Source: a virus (lineage: Duplodnaviria > Caudoviricetes). Taken from it: DNA of 64,000 nucleotides. Each line of letters opens with the position of its first letter. Position 1 is the first letter of the stretch. Under the pieces are notes generated by a model. That model saw only the letters and a list, made by a program, of their open reading frames with translations. It was not told the DNA's origin and did no database searches. This document shows positions 32,035-64,000 of this stretch, one piece after another. The DNA is taken from IMG/VR virus record IMGVR_UViG_3300032007_000010. The stretch is one strand, 5' to 3'. The position numbers and the translations under genes are program-made.

Positions 32035-33266
32035 ATGCTAATCAATAAACGCAATGGTGCACAAGTTGACTTTGACCGCGAAAAGATTGTACAGGCGATT
32101 AAGCGGGCCAATAATTCCGTCGATGTTTCCGAACGGTTAGGCGACGCGGTCATTGATGAGATCGCCAACACCATTGAACACAGATGCCAGAACATTGGGC
32201 ACATTCCCACGGTCGAAGAAGTACAGGACATGGTCATCAAGGACATCCAGCGCTACGGTGCCTTCGACCTTGCTACCAGCTACACCATATATCGGTACCA
32301 GAGGAGCCTCGTGCGGGCGGGCAACACCATCGACAAGAAGATCTTCAGTATTCTGGAAGGTACCAACGAGGAAGCTCGCACCGAAAACTCCAACAAAAAC
32401 ATTGACATCGCACCCGTGCAGAGAGATTATATGGCCGGTGAGGTGAATCGTGACATCACCGAACGCATTCTCCTGCCCAAAGAAATCATCGCCGAACACA
32501 AGAAAGGCGCCATCCATTTCCATGACAGCGACTTTTTCGGCCAGAAGATTCACAACTGCGCACTCATCAATATTGACGACATGCTTCAGCATGGGACAGT
32601 CATCACGGACACCAAGATCGAGAAACCTCATTCCTTTGCAACAGCCTGTAACATCATGACCCAGATTGTGATGCAGGTTGCTTCCTGCCAGTATGGTGGT
32701 CAGACAGTGTCTTTGTCGCATGTGGCCCCATTCGTTGACATTTCCCGTCAGAAGATTCGCAAGAATCTCCTCGCCGAGAACGAAGAGTCTGGTACGACAA
32801 TGAATGAAGAGCAGGTTGAAAAGCATGTTCAGATTCGACTCGCGCGTGAGATCGAGGCCGGCGTGCAGACGATTCAGTACCAGCTTTTGACCATGATGAC
32901 AACCAACGGGCAAACGCCCTTTGTCTCGGTTGCCGCATATCTCAACGAAGCTGATGATGTGGCTCGGGTAAACGGTCTTGATCCGGTAGTTCTTCGCCAG
33001 GATCTTGCCATGATCATCGAAGAGGTGCTCAAGCAGCGCTACCAGGGCATCAAAAACAAGGAGGGTGTCTGGATCTCTCCGCCGTTCCCGAAGATCCTAT
33101 ACTTCCTCGAGGACGATAACAACAAACCCGGCACCAAGTACTGGTACCTCACCGAACTGGCTGCCAAGTGCTCGATCAAACGTCTGACTCCCGATTACAT
33201 CTCCGAGAAACAGATCAAGGAGCAGAAAATCAATGCGATCGGCCAGCACGACTCATACCCCTGCAT
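32035..33266 (+). CDS. nrdD: Anaerobic ribonucleoside-triphosphate reductase, exon 1 (spliced product 758 aa)
   Basis: ATP-cone (KRNG...FD.EKI..AI), ENSNK, IHFHD, NC, QYGGQ, GQTPF, FPK; ends YPC-AT. Confidence 0.93.
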
Positions 33267-33639
33267 AAACAAAACCTGTGCCTGATAATGGTGACATTAT
33301 CAGCAAACTCATCTAAAAGGAGAAAGTCCTGATCATTGTGACATGGATCAGGATCACTTACCTTACTAAATTGATTGATAGCACCAAACCAATCATAAAA
33401 GTCTAACGACTATCGAAAGCATGTATATTCGAGAAATACGGTATTCATAGCAAGTAGAGTAGGGCCGCAAGCTAATGGCGGTACGGCATTGGGAAAGTAA
33501 GTCCGTTCAAATCGAAAAGATGAGACGTCTGGATCACGGTAAACAGTGACCAGCGTGTGATATAGTCTGATATCCCATGGTAACATGGGGAAGTTCATGA
33601 GAGAACTGCGTGATGTTGCGAATCACGTGAACATTTATG
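33267..33639 (+). mobile_element. Group I intron 1 of nrdD (373 nt, ORF-less)
   Basis: Exon ends in U, intron ends in G; removal restores YPC-M-GCRSFL; P7 ACGACUA/AUAGUC. Confidence 0.88.
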
Positions 33640-33746
33640 GGGATGTCGCAGCTTCTTGACTCCGGATCGAATGGTCGGCACTGGCATCGGTAATGTGGCC
33701 AATGCTGGCAATTACGAGGCTGACCACGGTAAATACTATGGACGGT
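33640..33746 (+). CDS. nrdD: nrdD exon 2 (107 nt; carries the MGCRSFL catalytic Cys)
   Basis: GCRSFLTPD...KYYGR. Confidence 0.88.
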
Positions 33747-34124
33747 TGACTACAAAGGTTGAGCCGTCGATAAACCATGTGAACATCCAGATGGATGGTG
33801 TGTGCGATGTTAATATCTGCATGCTAACGGTATCACTTACAATAAGTCGAAAGACGAATGCGGTGACTAAGAGAGCCTGAAGCCTCCGACGAGGCCATAT
33901 GGGAATACCGTGCCAATAACCGGATGGGAACGTCCGGGGACGGGTGTAGAGACTATCGAAAACTATAGAAAGCTTGTCGAGGACTACAATGCGTTAAATC
34001 TATAGTTAGTAGAGTAGGAGTGGTATCAAGACCACATGGTCATCAAATGTCCAATGATGATCACCCAAGCGCATGGATCAGCAAATAGCTGATAAGAGAT
34101 AGTCCAATTATCGACGTCTGATTA
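33747..34124 (+). mobile_element. Group I intron 2 of nrdD (378 nt, ORF-less, ends in A)
   Basis: P1 GACGGU/GCCGUC with U.G; P10 GGUUGA/UCAACC; P7 GAGACUA/UAGUCC; removal restores GRFNQGVVTINLP. Confidence 0.85.
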
Positions 34125-34642
34125 TCAACCAAGGCGTCGTCACGATCAATCTCCCCTATACCGCAATGGAATCCGACGGTGATATGGATAAGTTCTGGAA
34201 ACTCTTTGATGAGAGACTTGAGCTGTGCCACCGTGCTCTGCGCATTCGCCACGAGAGACTTCTCGGGACTCCGAGTGACATGGCGCCCATCATGTGGCAG
34301 CATGGTGCGCTTGCCCGTCTGAAACCCGGCGAAACCATCGACAAGCTTCTCTACGATGGATACTCCACCATTTCGCTCGGCTATGCCGGACTCTATGAGT
34401 GTGTCAAGTACATGACCGGGGAATCCCACACCAATCCCAATGTTGGCAAGCCCTTTGCGCTCAAGGTCATGAAATACATGAATGATAAGTGCAAGGAATG
34501 GAAGCTCGCCGAGAACATCGACTACTCTTTGTATGGAACACCCATCGAGAGTACGACCTATAAGTTCGCGAAGGCGCTCCAGCGTGATTTCGGCATCGTC
34601 GAAGATGTTTCTGATCACGGATATGTGACCAACAGCTACCAT
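34125..34642 (+). CDS. nrdD: nrdD exon 3
   Basis: FNQGVVTINLP, APIMWQHGA, SLGYAGLYE, YGTPIES, YVTNSYH. Confidence 0.9.
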
Positions 34643-35030
34643 CAACGTTAAGGTGGCAGTGTGTCGTGAGGCATGCTGATAAAATCAAGTGAACCCGTAC
34701 ATGCGGGGTGTGTTCAGGACTGTGAGTTCTGAATGCTAACGGTATCAGCGGAACTAAGACAGGCTATGTGACAATCATAGCCCCCGATTCATAATCGGGT
34801 CCGGGCGAATATGCTGACTAAGAGAGCCTGAAGGTCCTAATAAATAGGATAGCTGGGTGATACCGTGCTAAGGTTCTATTGTACAATAGGACAAAGTGTA
34901 ACGACTAACCGGGGTAGCGCCCGAGAGGAGTCCGGTGAAAGTCCGGCTCCGTAGGACTTGAGGTCTGCATGAGCAGATTGTGAGATAGTCTATTCCCCTA
35001 ATAAATATCGGGAAACCGAGGGTACTAAAG
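34643..35030 (+). mobile_element. Group I intron 3 of nrdD (388 nt, ORF-less)
   Basis: P1 CCAU/GUGG, P10 AACGUUAA/UUAACGUU, P7 ACGACUA/AUAGUC, terminal G; removal restores NSYH-VNVRE. Confidence 0.88.
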
Positions 35031-35450
35031 GTTAACGTTAGAGAGCAGATTTCTGCCTTCGATAAACTGCGTTTTGAGGCCGAGTTCCAGAAGCTCAGTC
35101 CCGGCGGTCAGATTTCCTACGTTGAGGTCCCGAACATGTCGAACAATATCGACGCAGTGCTGGACATCATCCGCTACATCGACGATAACATCATGTATGC
35201 GGAGCTCAACACGAAGTCTGACTACTGTCACGAATGCGGCTTCGATGGAGAGATTCTCATCAAGGAAGACAACGGCCAACTCATCTGGGAGTGTCCACAG
35301 TGTGGTAACCGCGATCAGAAGAAGATGAACGTGGCGAGACGCACGTGCGGATACATCGGAACCCAGTGGTGGAACCAGGGACGCACCGAGGAGATCCGCG
35401 ACCGCGTGCTCCACGTGTCCATCCCTGAGGTTGGCAATCCAAACGAGTAG
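35031..35450 (+). CDS. nrdD: nrdD exon 4 (glycyl radical domain)
   Basis: SPGGQISYVE, CHECG...CPQCG zinc site, RRTCGYIG glycyl-radical motif. Confidence 0.92.
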   Translation, partial: VNVREQISAFDKLRFEAEFQKLSPGGQISYVEVPNMSNNIDAVLDIIRYIDDNIMYAELNTKSDYCHECGFDGEILIKEDNGQLIWECPQCGNRDQKKMNVARRTCGYIGTQWWNQGRTEEIRDRVLHVSIPEVGNPNE

Positions 35451-60459: not shown

Positions 60460-60909
60460 ATGAGCGAAGGCTCCATCAATAAGACAGGCTCCATCGTCAC
60501 CTCGGGCAATGACCGTGGCAACTACTCGTCCACGCTCTCCGAAGATGCCCTCGCCGCCATCCGCGCCTCGAGTGGTTCCTCCGATGATTCTGGTTCCGGT
60601 GACTCTACTTCTCCAACCGGCGATGCATACTGGTCCTGCGGTCATCCGAAGACCATCGATCATCGGCACCTCGGCAAGATCGCCATGGGCAAAAAGTTTG
60701 AGATCAATGGAAGCACCGTGAACTCGACCTATGGTGAGTGGGTTGCCAACCTCGATCTGCTCGTGTCCAAGGGATACATCAACGAGTGCATGAAGGTTTC
60801 TTTTTTGCAGCTCAACCTCTACAATCGCGATCATGCGACCGTCGAGGATCCGGATGGTGAGCCCGAGACTCCGTCTCCGATCCGCTGGTGGCCATACTTC
60901 ACAACCTGA
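60460..60909 (+). CDS. Hypothetical late protein, Ser/Gly-rich N-terminus
   Basis: AAAGGAG RBS; terminator 60918-60942. Confidence 0.65.
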   Translation: MSEGSINKTGSIVTSGNDRGNYSSTLSEDALAAIRASSGSSDDSGSGDSTSPTGDAYWSCGHPKTIDHRHLGKIAMGKKFEINGSTVNSTYGEWVANLDLLVSKGYINECMKVSFLQLNLYNRDHATVEDPDGEPETPSPIRWWPYFTT

Positions 60910-60970
60910 ACACGCAGTCCCCTCCCGAGATGGGAGGGGAACTCTGTCCTTTCAATCCGGAATCAACTCG

Positions 60971-60981
60971 ACATTTCTATA
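60971..60981 (+). promoter_or_regulatory. Class L promoter
   Basis: ACA-TTTC-TATA. Confidence 0.7.
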
Positions 60982-61007
60982 ATCATAATGAATCAAAGGA
61001 TGTGATG

Positions 61008-62402
61008 ATGAACATGGCCAGAGCCCTTGGACTCTTTGCAAACCTGCTTGACGTGGACAAGTTTGTGTCGATCAATCGACTCCAGAGCTGCGACAATCCG
61101 GTCTACATCGACCGCAACGCGCCGACCGCAGACGGTGTTTTGTCCTATGAGATCTTCGGATCGTCAACCTTCGAACGCCAGAATCGCATGGCATACATCG
61201 ACCTTTCTCCGCATCACTATATGACGCCGCTGGCCGCGGCGACTCTCAATTCATACGATCGAACCCTCAACAAGATACTCTATTCCCAGGGGCGCTACCG
61301 CTTCGAGGATGGGAAGCTCATCGAAGATTTCGTAAATGGTGAATCTGGTCCAGATTTTCTCTATGAGATATGGGGGAAAGTTAAGGTCAAGGACAAGGAG
61401 ACCATCACCACCAAGGAGGTCCAGAAATTCTTCGAGGTGCCGAGGGAACAGCTATTCATCGATAAATTTCCGATCATTCCGGCCTTCTATCGCGATCTCA
61501 ATGTGTCTGGTGAGGGTGCCTACATCAAGAAGAGCTCCAACGTGATCAACTCGCAATATTCATCCATGATTGCCTACACGAAGACGCTGCGCAAATACAC
61601 CGATACCTTCGGTCACATGGCCAACCTCACCCAGAGTCGCATCCAGTCCGTCATGGTCGATATCTACAATGCACTCATGGTCCAGCAGGTCAAGGGCAAA
61701 CCCTCAAAGTTTGGACTTATCCGGAGAGCCATGCAGGGAAAGAATGTCAACTATTCCGCACGTCTGGTCATATCGTCTCCGATCCTTCAGAGATCCTCTT
61801 ATCGTGACGTGATGGTGAAGTTCGGTACGGCTGTGGTGCCACTGGCCTATACGATCACATGTTTCTTCCCGTTTGTTGTTCATCACATGAAGCGCTTCTT
61901 CGATCAGGAATTCTTGCAGGGTGGTAAATATCCGTATCTCGACGATCAAAAACAGCTCAGATATACCACCATCACGCGGTCCTATTCGGAGAATGAAATC
62001 ACCGATATGATCACACACTATCTCAATGTTCCGGCGGATCGTCACAACACCGTGCTTACTCCGGAGGATGTGCAGGGAAGACGCTTCCCCATGCTCATCA
62101 CCGGGAAGTTCGGTCAGGAAAACACCACGATCACGCGCCTGGCAACGATCACCGATATTCTCTACATCGTTGCCAAGATTGCCACCGAGGATAAGCATGT
62201 GTTCATCACACGCTATCCACTCGACAACTACAATGGTCAATGGCCTGGCAGAGTCGAGATTAGCACCACGGTGCGTACGACTCCCGCCATCATCGGAAAC
62301 AAATACTATCCATTCTTTCCGATATGTGAGGGCGATCCTGCCAACAACTTCATCGATACTCTTCAGTTTAGCAACACCATGCTCGGTGCCATGAACGGGG
62401 AT
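61008..62402 (+). CDS. rpoC: Phage RNA polymerase beta' subunit, exon 1 (probably virion RNAP)
   Basis: DG.LS.EIFG, MAYIDL, P.IPA.YRD, GLIRRAMQGKNVNYSARLVIS, TRYP; ends in AMNGD of the catalytic NxDxDGD motif. Confidence 0.88.
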
Positions 62403-63528
62403 TACGAGATGACAGTGACTCTTCATAGTCCCCTGCGGGAGCGATCCCGTAAGAACAAATCAGTGAACGCTTCACAAGCGGTGTGGGCGCAAGCCTGCTA
62501 ACGGTTTCACTCATAATAAGTCGGGACCAGAGAGTCGTTCAGCCTGGTCACACCAAACCGATGAATGCGGTGACTAAGAGAGCCTGAAGCCTCCGACGAG
62601 GCCATATGGGAATACCGTGCCAATAACCGGATGGGAACGTCCGGGGACGGGTGTAGAGGCCATGGGTTTAATCCCATTAGGATCCGGTTGCGGCCGGACA
62701 CCGAAGTGCTGAGCCTCGGAGAGCAACGGAACCCCGAGGAAAAGAGATGGTCCGGAGTCAGATTAAATCACGCAGATCAATGGTAGGAAGATTCCACTCT
62801 TCACAGAATATATTAACATCAATAAGACCCTGTCGATATCTAACAAGACTCTTCTTTGATAAATTATTACGTGAGGTGCTATGAAGCTTAGCATAAACAA
62901 CTTCTTCTGCGCGCTTACGTCGCTTATTGGCATTCAATTCAAAGAAAAGGTATTGTTCTACTCGCTTTCCAGTCTTCATTGACCTGGATATGTGTGATCT
63001 ATCTTTTGATAGGTATTGACCGGCAGATTTTTTACTGAGTACGACCCAGGTTCCTTTGGTATCTGTATCATACATTATTATCGGGTCTGATTTAGTAAAG
63101 TTCATTATCATCTGTGTACGCTTATCGGTTCCACGTTGAATCGGTGTCATTTTACTATGCCACTGCTTCGACAGCGTATTGTATCCATATCTCGGGTTAT
63201 CTGTTTTGAATTTTGCAATATAATGAGCTTCTCTATCTGCTCGATAATCTTTGTTGAGAAGTCGTACATCGTTATATTCTGATTCGAGAATAATAGGTAC
63301 AAAACATTCTGAACCGATTTGATGTATCGGTGAGTTTGAATCAGTCTTGTGTTCTGTGAGCCTTCTGAGTACATTACCAGATTCGCCTATATACTTCATA
63401 CCATTGACAGTATTGTACAGCATATAGACACCCGCGAAACTTTTGAGCTTACCCATCTAATAATACCACCTTTCTATACGGTATCTCAGTAAATATATGT
63501 TGTACAGTTCATTTAATACGTGACATCG
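62403..63528 (+). mobile_element. Group I intron (1126 nt) in the beta' catalytic motif, with antisense homing endonuclease in P9
   Basis: P1 GGGGAU/GUCCCC with U.G at 62402; P10 UCAUA/UAUGA; P7 GAGGCCA/UGGUCC; terminal G63528; P9 stem 62757-68/63511-24 encloses the ORF. Confidence 0.85.
62758..63456 (-). CDS. GIY-YIG homing endonuclease (antisense to host intron)
   Basis: GVY.L.N..NG..YIGES.N...R...H, E.HYI, YGYN; AT-rich; own AAAGGTGG RBS. Confidence 0.9.
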   Translation of the reverse strand: MGKLKSFAGVYMLYNTVNGMKYIGESGNVLRRLTEHKTDSNSPIHQIGSECFVPIILESEYNDVRLLNKDYRADREAHYIAKFKTDNPRYGYNTLSKQWHSKMTPIQRGTDKRTQMIMNFTKSDPIIMYDTDTKGTWVVLSKKSAGQYLSKDRSHISRSMKTGKRVEQYLFFELNANKRRKRAEEVVYAKLHSTSRNNLSKKSLVRYRQGLIDVNIFCEEWNLPTIDLRDLI

Positions 63529-63538
63529 TATGACGGAG
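63529..63538 (+). CDS. rpoC: beta' micro-exon 2 (10 nt, TATGACGGAG = Y-D-G plus first base of D)
   Basis: Joining to exon 1 gives NGD-YDG-(D); matches P10 of the upstream intron and EBS1 of the downstream intron. Confidence 0.8.
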
Positions 63539-64000
63539 TTGACGCCAGGCAAGGTGTCTGTTCGAGGAATGAAATGAGGAAGTAACGTTCCGAAGCATTC
63601 CCTCTAATATCCGGGCAATGGAGCTGGTGACAGCTCGGTTGTAAGACCGGTGAAGTCGCGTCTCGAGCGCGGGAGTCAGATCGACATGGTGAGGAACACG
63701 AACATCCTCACGGATGGCTGGACTTGGACGAGTAGTCTTGTCTCTGTTGCGAAAGTCCTCTTTGGCTCATGGGGCCAATGCTACAGACCAGTCATGTAAT
63801 AGGATGCACCTAAATCGATCTTATGATAGAACAGATGCAACCTGGGAGATCTCATTGTTCCAAATGAACCATGAGAAGTCGGAGGGGTCATAGTACCGAT
63901 GAAGTCGCCAATCACGATGGAGGGAAGGACCCTAGCGGGTGATGTTTATCACCCGGTGAAAGCCGAATATGGGGAAACTCGTACGTTCGGTTTGGCCAGA
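63539..64000 (+). mobile_element. ORF-less group II intron (continues past window end)
   Basis: Domain V AGCCGAATATGGG-GAAA-CTCGTACGTTCGGTT (63961-63992, AGC triad and AC bulge); domain III AGTCGGAG..ATAGTACCGATGAAG..GGAGGGAAGG; 20-nt domain IV hairpin; EBS1/EBS2 match the exon. Confidence 0.85.

Follow-up and report, generated by a model that had tools for sequence, protein, structure and literature searches.

Analysis of a 64,000-nt stretch of DNA (hereafter referred to as the window) from a virus of the class Caudoviricetes, IMG/VR record IMGVR_UViG_3300032007_000010, revealed that the gene for the beta' subunit of its virion RNA polymerase (vRNAP) is interrupted within the codons of the catalytic metal-binding motif DYDGD. 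Within them lie, in this order, a group I intron, a 10-nt micro-exon and a group II intron, an anatomy that is far beyond chance. Such close spacing (10 nt) of two classes of ribozyme within the metal-binding motif of an RNA polymerase (RNAP) is new, and it is conserved in two divergent phages, the one studied here and the metagenomic phage L021, which share the layout of group I intron, micro-exon and group II intron. The two introns are most probably (at about 0.7, judged from sequence) independent invaders, each of which has its essential exon contacts in the primary transcript, and a further pairing of the group II intron with the junction left by the group I intron would then be coincidental.

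The window corresponds to positions 20387-84386 of a single contig of 287,660 bp, the genome of a jumbo phage (approximately 288 kb) that is rated as a complete virus. The DNA downstream of the window was added for the present analysis (locus L001, whose coordinates equal those of the window minus 60000). All coordinates given below, unless a locus is named, are those of the window and refer to the plus strand except where stated. The open reading frame (ORF) starting at 60888 was recognized by tblastn as the orthologue of g145 of phage AR9, i.e. the N-terminal subunit of virion RNAP beta', and shares 28-32% identity with the proteins of LPJP1, Goe21, AR9, PBS1 and Staphylococcus jumbo phages. 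A blastn comparison of the segment 62300-64000 with deposited phages gave no match.

Exon 1 (60888-62402), delimited by tblastn with AR9-like jumbo phages and by a collinear alignment of the joined protein, ends with the codons AAC GGG GAT (NGD), the last of which specifies the first catalytic Asp. The full layout of the motif is ATG AAC GGG GAT, the group I intron (62403-63528), TAT GAC GGA G, and the group II intron (from 63539). The micro-exon TATGACGGAG (63529-63538) specifies Tyr, Asp (the second of the motif) and Gly, and also supplies the opening base of the codon for the third Asp. Exon 3 starts at the window-equivalent position 64043 (42 nt after the window end) with AC ACT GTA TCT CTG CGT CCA GTT TTT, which is the sole downstream continuation that yields a sensible protein. 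When joined, the three exons, all of which retain an open and conserved frame, form an ORF of 580 aa with the motif reading NGDYDGDTVSLRPVF, and the product aligns with the intronless Goe21 protein without gaps through both junctions (AMNGDYDGDTVSLRPVFTKEANAECEE against ALGGDYDGDTVSLRGVFSKEANEEAER). The three-exon structure put forward in the original prediction, which had been made from the window alone, is therefore confirmed, as is its expectation that exon 3 would begin with AY and complete a GAY (Asp) codon.

Other placements of the junctions were considered and rejected. An intron start at G63538 (GUUGA) causes a frameshift or else gives YDGEH with the 3' site inside the helix of domain VI, and exon 3 starts at 64032, 64034 or 64039 produce the wrong frame or extra residues relative to the homologues. 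The arrangement is also not a twintron (one intron inside another): the introns lie side by side, and the 10 nt between them stay in the mRNA and encode YDG.

The assignment of 62403-63528 (1126 nt) to the group I introns holds on the predicted helices P1 and P10 and omega-G, on several paralogues found elsewhere in this genome and on covariation among nine relatives. The core extends over 62403-62757 and the 3' tail over 63457-63528, with omega-G at 63528. The 5' strand of P1, GGGGAU (62397-62402), pairs with the internal guide GUCCCC (62428-62433), with a U.G pair at the splice site, and this helix has compensatory variants in related introns: GCGGAU/GUCCGC in a paralogue located in the non-virion RNAP (nvRNAP) gene, GGCGAU/GUCGCC in L024 and CGGACU/GGUCCG in L007 and L019. 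Directly 5' of the guide, UCAUA (62423-62427) pairs with bases 1-5 of the micro-exon (UAUGA) as P10.

The remaining helices of the core were traced by comparison. P3 (5' strand UCAGUG, 62460-62465; partner UGCUGA, 62707-62712) shows CG, UA and UG pair types over nine sequences, with compensatory changes. P7 (5' strand GGCCAU, 62658-62663; partner AUGGUC, 62747-62752) takes the form GACUAU/AUAGUC in relatives, including one compensatory U-A to C-G change, and its G-C pair is invariant in nine of nine sequences. The P8 hairpin CCUCGG..CCGAGG (62714-62739) covaries with CCUG..CAGG and CCCUG..CAGGG, and a J8/7-like AAGAGAU is located upstream of the 3' strand of P7. In the nine-sequence alignment, RNAalifold found a compensatory change in 34 of 57 pairs. 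With the P2/P3/P7/P7.1/P8 assignment 79.9% of the cells are paired, compared with 31-48% when the partners are slid, and none of 500 shuffles equalled it; 18 of the 28 pairs of these helices have changed on both sides. Between the core and the tail, the minus strand carries an ORF of 232 aa (62758-63456) for a GIY-YIG homing endonuclease (Pfam PF01541, E 9.8e-10) with its own AGGTGG ribosome-binding site. The orientation of this gene, antisense to the intron, implies that it is transcribed separately and that RNA complementary to the intron is made. Antisense endonuclease ORFs, which are unusual for phage introns, are also present in the introns of L009 and L019.

The complementarity of the P1 loop (62406-62427) to the exons is not confined to the micro-exon. 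The sequences ACAGUG (62412-62417) and GAGAU (62406-62410) pair with CACUGU and AUCUC of exon 3, i.e. beyond the group II intron. The energy of the duplex is -22.5 kcal/mol with ligated exons and -11.7 kcal/mol with the precursor, and shuffled versions of exon 3 give -13.7 +/- 3.0 kcal/mol (P ~0.009). A long P10, with a sequence that differs in each host exon, also occurs in other members of the family: in the nvRNAP paralogue (equalled by 0 of 1000 shuffles), L019 (P 0.004), L021 (0.006), L009 (0.013) and L007 (0.029); that of L024 is not significant when compared with shuffles. In L021 the P10 helix GAUACG/CGUAUC straddles the junction, with -15.8 kcal/mol for the precursor and -16.9 kcal/mol for the ligated form; the 5' end of the L021 group II intron (GUGCG) mimics exon 3, and its precursor therefore pairs almost as well. 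The extended P10 is the only statistically supported pairing across a junction. It matches exon 3 only if the group II intron is missing or has already left, and the group I intron therefore appears to be adapted to an uninterrupted exon, which may reflect either the history of the locus or a preference for removal of the group II intron before ligation of the group I exons.

The second intron (63539-64042; 504 nt) is a IIB-like group II element devoid of an ORF, identified by Rfam matches and by alignment with the introns of L021 and L023, to which it is approximately 58% identical and which occupy the identical exon position (..GACGGAG). RF02004 (group II D1-D4-5) matches at 63549-63683 with 66.4 bits (cut-off 34.5), and after the addition of the downstream DNA RF00029 (D5/D6) matches at 63958-64031 with 45.5 bits (cut-off 40). 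Domain V, with its AGC catalytic triad, lies at 63958-63993 according to the RF00029 alignment, and domain VI then runs beyond the window end. Both domains are present in the minimum free energy (MFE) fold, where the helix of domain VI has an A-rich internal loop 8-10 nt before the 3' splice site. No intron-encoded reverse transcriptase (RT)/maturase was found in the ORF list, and in the MFE fold domain IV is a short hairpin without an ORF. Only one domain V is present in the whole genome. The reading frame and homology both place the 5' boundary at 63539, while the 3' end, ..GGAAC before AC, fits AY and is aligned with ..ACAU before AU in the homologues. RF02004 is also the Rfam model that recognizes the IIB introns published for AR9, PBS1, Internexus, LPJP1, S6 and PALS_2 (Merk, Jones & Eddy 2025, PMC12350094).

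The exon-binding site 1 (EBS1) of this intron, CUCUGUU (63742-63748), pairs over 7 bp, including two G.U pairs, with the intron-binding site 1 (IBS1) GACGGAG (63532-63538), and the corresponding sequence of the homologues is CUCCGUU. Exon position -1 is precisely where the longest exon-intron helix stops in each of the eight family introns examined, and the adjacent UGU (63739-63741) is able to pair with ACA of exon 3. The pairing of CUCUGU (63742-63747) with ACGGAG and the assignment of the two introns to group I and group II had both been proposed originally and are upheld by these results, the group II class by Rfam and the group I class by P1, P10, omega-G and covariation. The sequence GAUACU was considered as the EBS1 of AR9 and rejected; it pairs with the AR9 exon but sits in the loop of domain II.

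Outside the window, the phage genome encodes a free-standing RT of 493 aa (L174:919-2400, at approximately 129.2-130.7 kb of contig C1), whose best NCBIfam match is a group II RT/maturase (91.9 bits, compared with a cut-off of 300). No group II intron RNA was found around this gene, the product of which is a possible trans maturase or else an unrelated RT.

The hairpin that presents EBS1 is built alike in the window, L021, L023, L033 and AR9: a stem GGAC/GUCC, an AGUA/GAA internal-loop motif, 2 bp, and a terminal loop of 9-12 nt with EBS1 (12 nt in the window, 63737-63748). A pattern scan of IMG/VR for this subfamily returned many loci, with the hairpin in five independent sequences only. The 2-bp stem covaries in all five, being G-C/U.G in three of them, A-U/U.G in AR9 and A-U/U-A in L023, and this accounts in five of five for the single variable base of GUAGUC (63732-63737), which the original prediction had taken for EBS2. 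These bases more likely belong to the AGUA/GAA motif (63731-63734 with 63751-63753) and to the 2-bp stem (G63735-C63750 and U63736.G63749). AR9 (GUAAUA) and L033 (GUAGUA), whose introns are inserted after PIE(Q/N)Y and before Q, keep the motif, and their exons contain no complementary hexamer in any register.

No convincing alternative EBS2 was found for the group II intron. At the canonical IIB position, the internal loop after GGAACACGAAC (here UCACGG, 63708-63713), other family members show only AU-rich and possibly spurious matches. Two pairings of the present intron, UCACG:CGUGA, which involves the group I tail of the precursor, and AUCCUC:GGGGAU, seen with ligated exons, were set aside as chance.

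In the reading that we prefer, that of two independent invaders, the 15 bases coding for DYDGD would have been invaded twice, at sites 10 nt apart, by selfish introns unrelated to each other: (i) a group I intron that, like the phage IA subgroup, has additional helices of the P7.1 type and that carries an antisense GIY-YIG gene, inserted at GAU↓UAU (the arrow marks the insertion point), and (ii) an ORF-less IIB-like group II intron inserted at GGAG↓AC. An active enzyme would require the removal of both. In the precursor the group I intron would use exon 1 for P1 and the micro-exon for a P10 of 5 bp, and the group II intron would find its 7-bp IBS1. As IBS1 lies wholly within the micro-exon, the group II intron has its main exon contact before any splicing has taken place, and with the essential contacts of both introns in the primary transcript either should in principle be able to splice without waiting for the other. 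Bases 1-5 of the micro-exon form the core of P10 and bases 4-10 form IBS1; because of this 2-nt overlap the ribozymes may be expected to compete for the micro-exon, and their first-step or second-step complexes probably cannot occupy it simultaneously. We infer splicing activity, and any order of splicing, from these predicted contacts.

Several observations weigh against this reading. A search of 62300-64000 with the Rfam group I model RF00028 (cut-off 50 bits) gave no match even at E<=10. As Rfam is silent on 62403-63528, comparison with related introns had to supply the group I assignment, and the covariance-model search suggested in the original prediction recovered the group II intron (RF02004 and RF00029) but not its neighbour. 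The 5' end of the group II intron is UUGACG, compared with GUGCG in L021 and GCGCG in L023, i.e. G1 is replaced by U and one base is inserted; such a non-GUGYG end could impair the intron or change its chemistry. Finally, each of the three introns at this site keeps the complementarity between GUAGUC and GAYUAY, and in L023, which has the group II intron only, every pair is Watson-Crick; a genuine EBS2 role therefore retains some probability.

The last of these points favours the serial gate originally proposed, in which the IBS2 required by the group II intron (GAU↓UAU) comes into being only through excision of the group I intron, the group I intron must be removed before the group II intron, and RNAP synthesis is controlled by this order. 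GUAGUC indeed pairs with the ligated hexamer at six of six positions (two of them G.U) and with the precursor sequence UCGUAU at three of six, the homologous hexamers pair too (GUAGUC:GACUAU in L021 and GUAAUC:GAUUAC, entirely Watson-Crick, in L023), and it is kinetically plausible that the group I intron, whose core is transcribed well ahead of group II domain V, would be the first to leave. However, the match is not above chance: 16 hexamers of domain I pair with positions -18 to -7 of the ligated exon, compared with a mean of 8.6 for shuffled domain I, and the probability of at least one such hexamer within 45 nt 5' of EBS1 is 0.52. The variable base of GUAGUC is a purine opposite the wobble base of GAY, and three of the four combinations pair. 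The same bases form the AGUA/GAA motif and the covarying 2-bp stem described above, the motif persists in AR9 and L033 where the exon complementarity is absent, and with only 3-4 nt between the proposed EBS2 and EBS1, two helices formed at once on one continuous stretch of exon would be geometrically strained. The pairing with the junction left by the group I intron is most likely a coincidence between a conserved hairpin motif and Asp-Tyr codons. The difference between ligated exon and precursor is real, but the role of GUAGUC as EBS2, on which the obligatory order depends, is not supported. The 7-bp IBS1 is already complete in the precursor; we consider a serial gate of this kind improbable. 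It is very improbable, in our estimate, that the group II intron is decaying or dependent on a helper, i.e. that with U1 and the inserted base it cannot self-splice and the gene is either inactive or served by a trans maturase such as the free-standing RT. The deviating 5' end, the absence of an ORF from the intron and the RT gene (its match well under the cut-off) are in accordance with this explanation. It is opposed by the Rfam matches above the cut-offs in the D1 core and in domains V and VI, by the presence of EBS1, by the open and conserved frame of all three exons and by the rating of the genome as complete. Moreover, the virion RNAP is essential in AR9-like phages.

A coupling in the opposite direction, in which the group II intron leaves first, or at least before ligation of the group I exons, and a long P10 that docks the 3' exon spans the group-II-ligated junction, is possible, if unlikely. 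The P1 loop is complementary to the micro-exon and exon 3 over 5+6+5 bp, with the gain in energy given above, and the long P10 is a trait of the family that follows the sequence of each host exon. In L007 and L009, moreover, the P1 of a downstream group I intron (CAUGGAU/GUCCAUG) uses the 3' end of an upstream one, which implies that the downstream intron is removed first. On the other hand, a 5-bp P10 is already available in the precursor, the precursor of L021 pairs nearly as well as its ligated form, and the complementarity may be a relic of a group-II-free ancestor. P10 is, in addition, usually dispensable for group I splicing. The reading of two independent invaders is compatible with the contacts present in the primary transcript and remains the one that we favour.

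Alleles in related phages bear on the order of arrival. L021 (61% identity in the beta' protein) has the layout GAC U, group I intron, AUGACGGAG (a 9-nt micro-exon), group II intron, AU ACG GUC. The group-II-only allele that had been anticipated at the same site is carried by L023 (46% identity), where the intron interrupts a contiguous GAT TAC GAC GGA G, while L024 (47% identity), whose downstream exon protein is nearly identical to that of L023, has a group I intron only, at GAT↓TAC. A single group I intron is present in L019 (61% identity) and two group I introns in tandem in L007, L008, L009 and L020 (61-62% identity). In AR9 (~31% identity) the group I intron is located at DYD↓GD and the group II intron approximately 60 codons upstream. 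The existence of group-II-only (L023) and group-I-only (L024) alleles points to two independent insertions at neighbouring sites. These alleles do not favour an earlier arrival of the group II intron over the reverse, since both kinds of single-intron allele occur in sister contigs, and the fit of the extended P10 to the group-II-free exon argues, if anything, for the opposite.

The tandem group I introns of L007 (6379-7099) and L009 (6373-7842) appear to be separated by a micro-exon of 2 nt: GAC U, intron 1 (..CCAUGG), AU, intron 2 (..G), GAY GGN GAU. P10 of intron 2 covaries (GACGG/CCGUU against GAUGG/CCAUU), and P10 of intron 1 spans the junction that is formed by the removal of intron 2. 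The second intron of the relatives scores 27-31 bits with RF00028, under the cut-off. A survey of insertion points (window 62400-63538, L007, L010, L019, L021, L023, L024 and AR9) revealed at least five in GAY UAY GAY GGN GAY, namely GAY↓UAY, GAC U↓AU, UAU↓GAC, GAU↓GGA (AR9) and GGA G↓AY (group II).

The co-occurrence of one group II and one group I intron in the N-terminal vRNAP beta' gene is already known from AR9, PBS1 and Internexus (Merk, Jones & Eddy, NAR 2025, PMC12350094, Fig. 5A; for AR9 also the annotation of Lavysh et al.). The AR9 gene is orthologous to that described here and resembles it in having a group II intron of the IIB subtype (Rfam D1D4-5), a group I intron inside the DYDGD codons and homing endonucleases. 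It differs in that its group II intron lies upstream, at PIEQY↓Q, whereas here the group I intron precedes the group II intron and both are inside the motif. Furthermore, both AR9 introns contain endonuclease genes (g147 in the group II and g146 in the group I intron), in contrast to the ORF-less group II intron and antisense endonuclease of the present phage, where, unlike in AR9, the two ribozymes bind overlapping stretches of exon.

Tandem organellar introns with mini-exons have been described in fungal mitochondria, e.g. the group II pair rnl-576/577 of Ophiostoma, whose members have just one A between them, and complex introns of mixed group I/II type (PMC12308204). These share with the present case two self-splicing introns, a very short exon between them and exon-binding sequences that are shared or reconstituted; the present case differs in being located in a protein-coding gene of a phage, at an RNAP metal-binding site, and in combining two ribozyme classes. 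As in twintrons, both ribozymes must leave and the structure can impose an order, but here they are not nested, a 10-nt exon is retained between them and neither core is interrupted. Features held in common with the group I introns of phages (T4 td, nrdB and sunY/nrdD, and the phiPA3-type RNAP intron of jumbo phages) are the location in conserved catalytic codons, P7.1-type helices and GIY-YIG endonucleases, as well as the presence of several introns per genome, including in nrdD. The antisense endonuclease, an unusually long P10 of up to ~16 bp and the silence of RF00028 set the present intron apart from these.

DYDGD is the shortest stretch that cannot be changed in any multisubunit RNA polymerase, yet it is a hot spot of intron insertion. 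The natural alleles (group I only, group II only, group I with group I, and group I with group II) constitute a ready comparative system, suited to studies of the interference or cooperation of adjacent self-splicing introns, of the persistence of ORF-less group II introns in phages, and of whether splicing order is ever set by exon-binding sites that are created by removal of a neighbour. A further reading, which we regard as rather unlikely, would treat the two ribozymes as coupled and mobile as a single cassette: the long P10 would prefer prior removal of the group II intron, and, the 10-nt micro-exon being too short to serve as a recombination flank, homing of the group I intron, whenever the GIY-YIG enzyme triggers it, would carry the ORF-less group II intron along. 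The group II intron would then be mobilised by the endonuclease of the group I intron, and RNAP production would hinge on two classes of ribozyme that compete for a single exon of 10 nt.

Further group I introns were observed elsewhere in the genome. The paralogue mentioned above, likewise of 1126 nt, is inserted in the second (non-virion) beta' gene at AAD↓FDGD (L005:1191-2316; approximately 188197-189322 of contig C1, outside the window). Its GIY-YIG ORF is likewise antisense (minus strand, L005 1550-2245), and no other member of the family has a P10 as strong as its 12-bp helix. In an nrdD-like gene (anaerobic ribonucleotide reductase; window 33257-35040) there are three apparent group I introns, located at 33257-33590 (RF00028, 37.4 bits, below the cut-off), ~33747-34124 and ~34650-35040, of which the second and third are members of the family that includes the RNAP intron. 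A block of 99 nt of the second nrdD intron (33853-33951) is 99% identical to 62560-62658 of the RNAP intron, with different flanks and a different P7, which suggests a recent recombination or gene conversion between intron cores.

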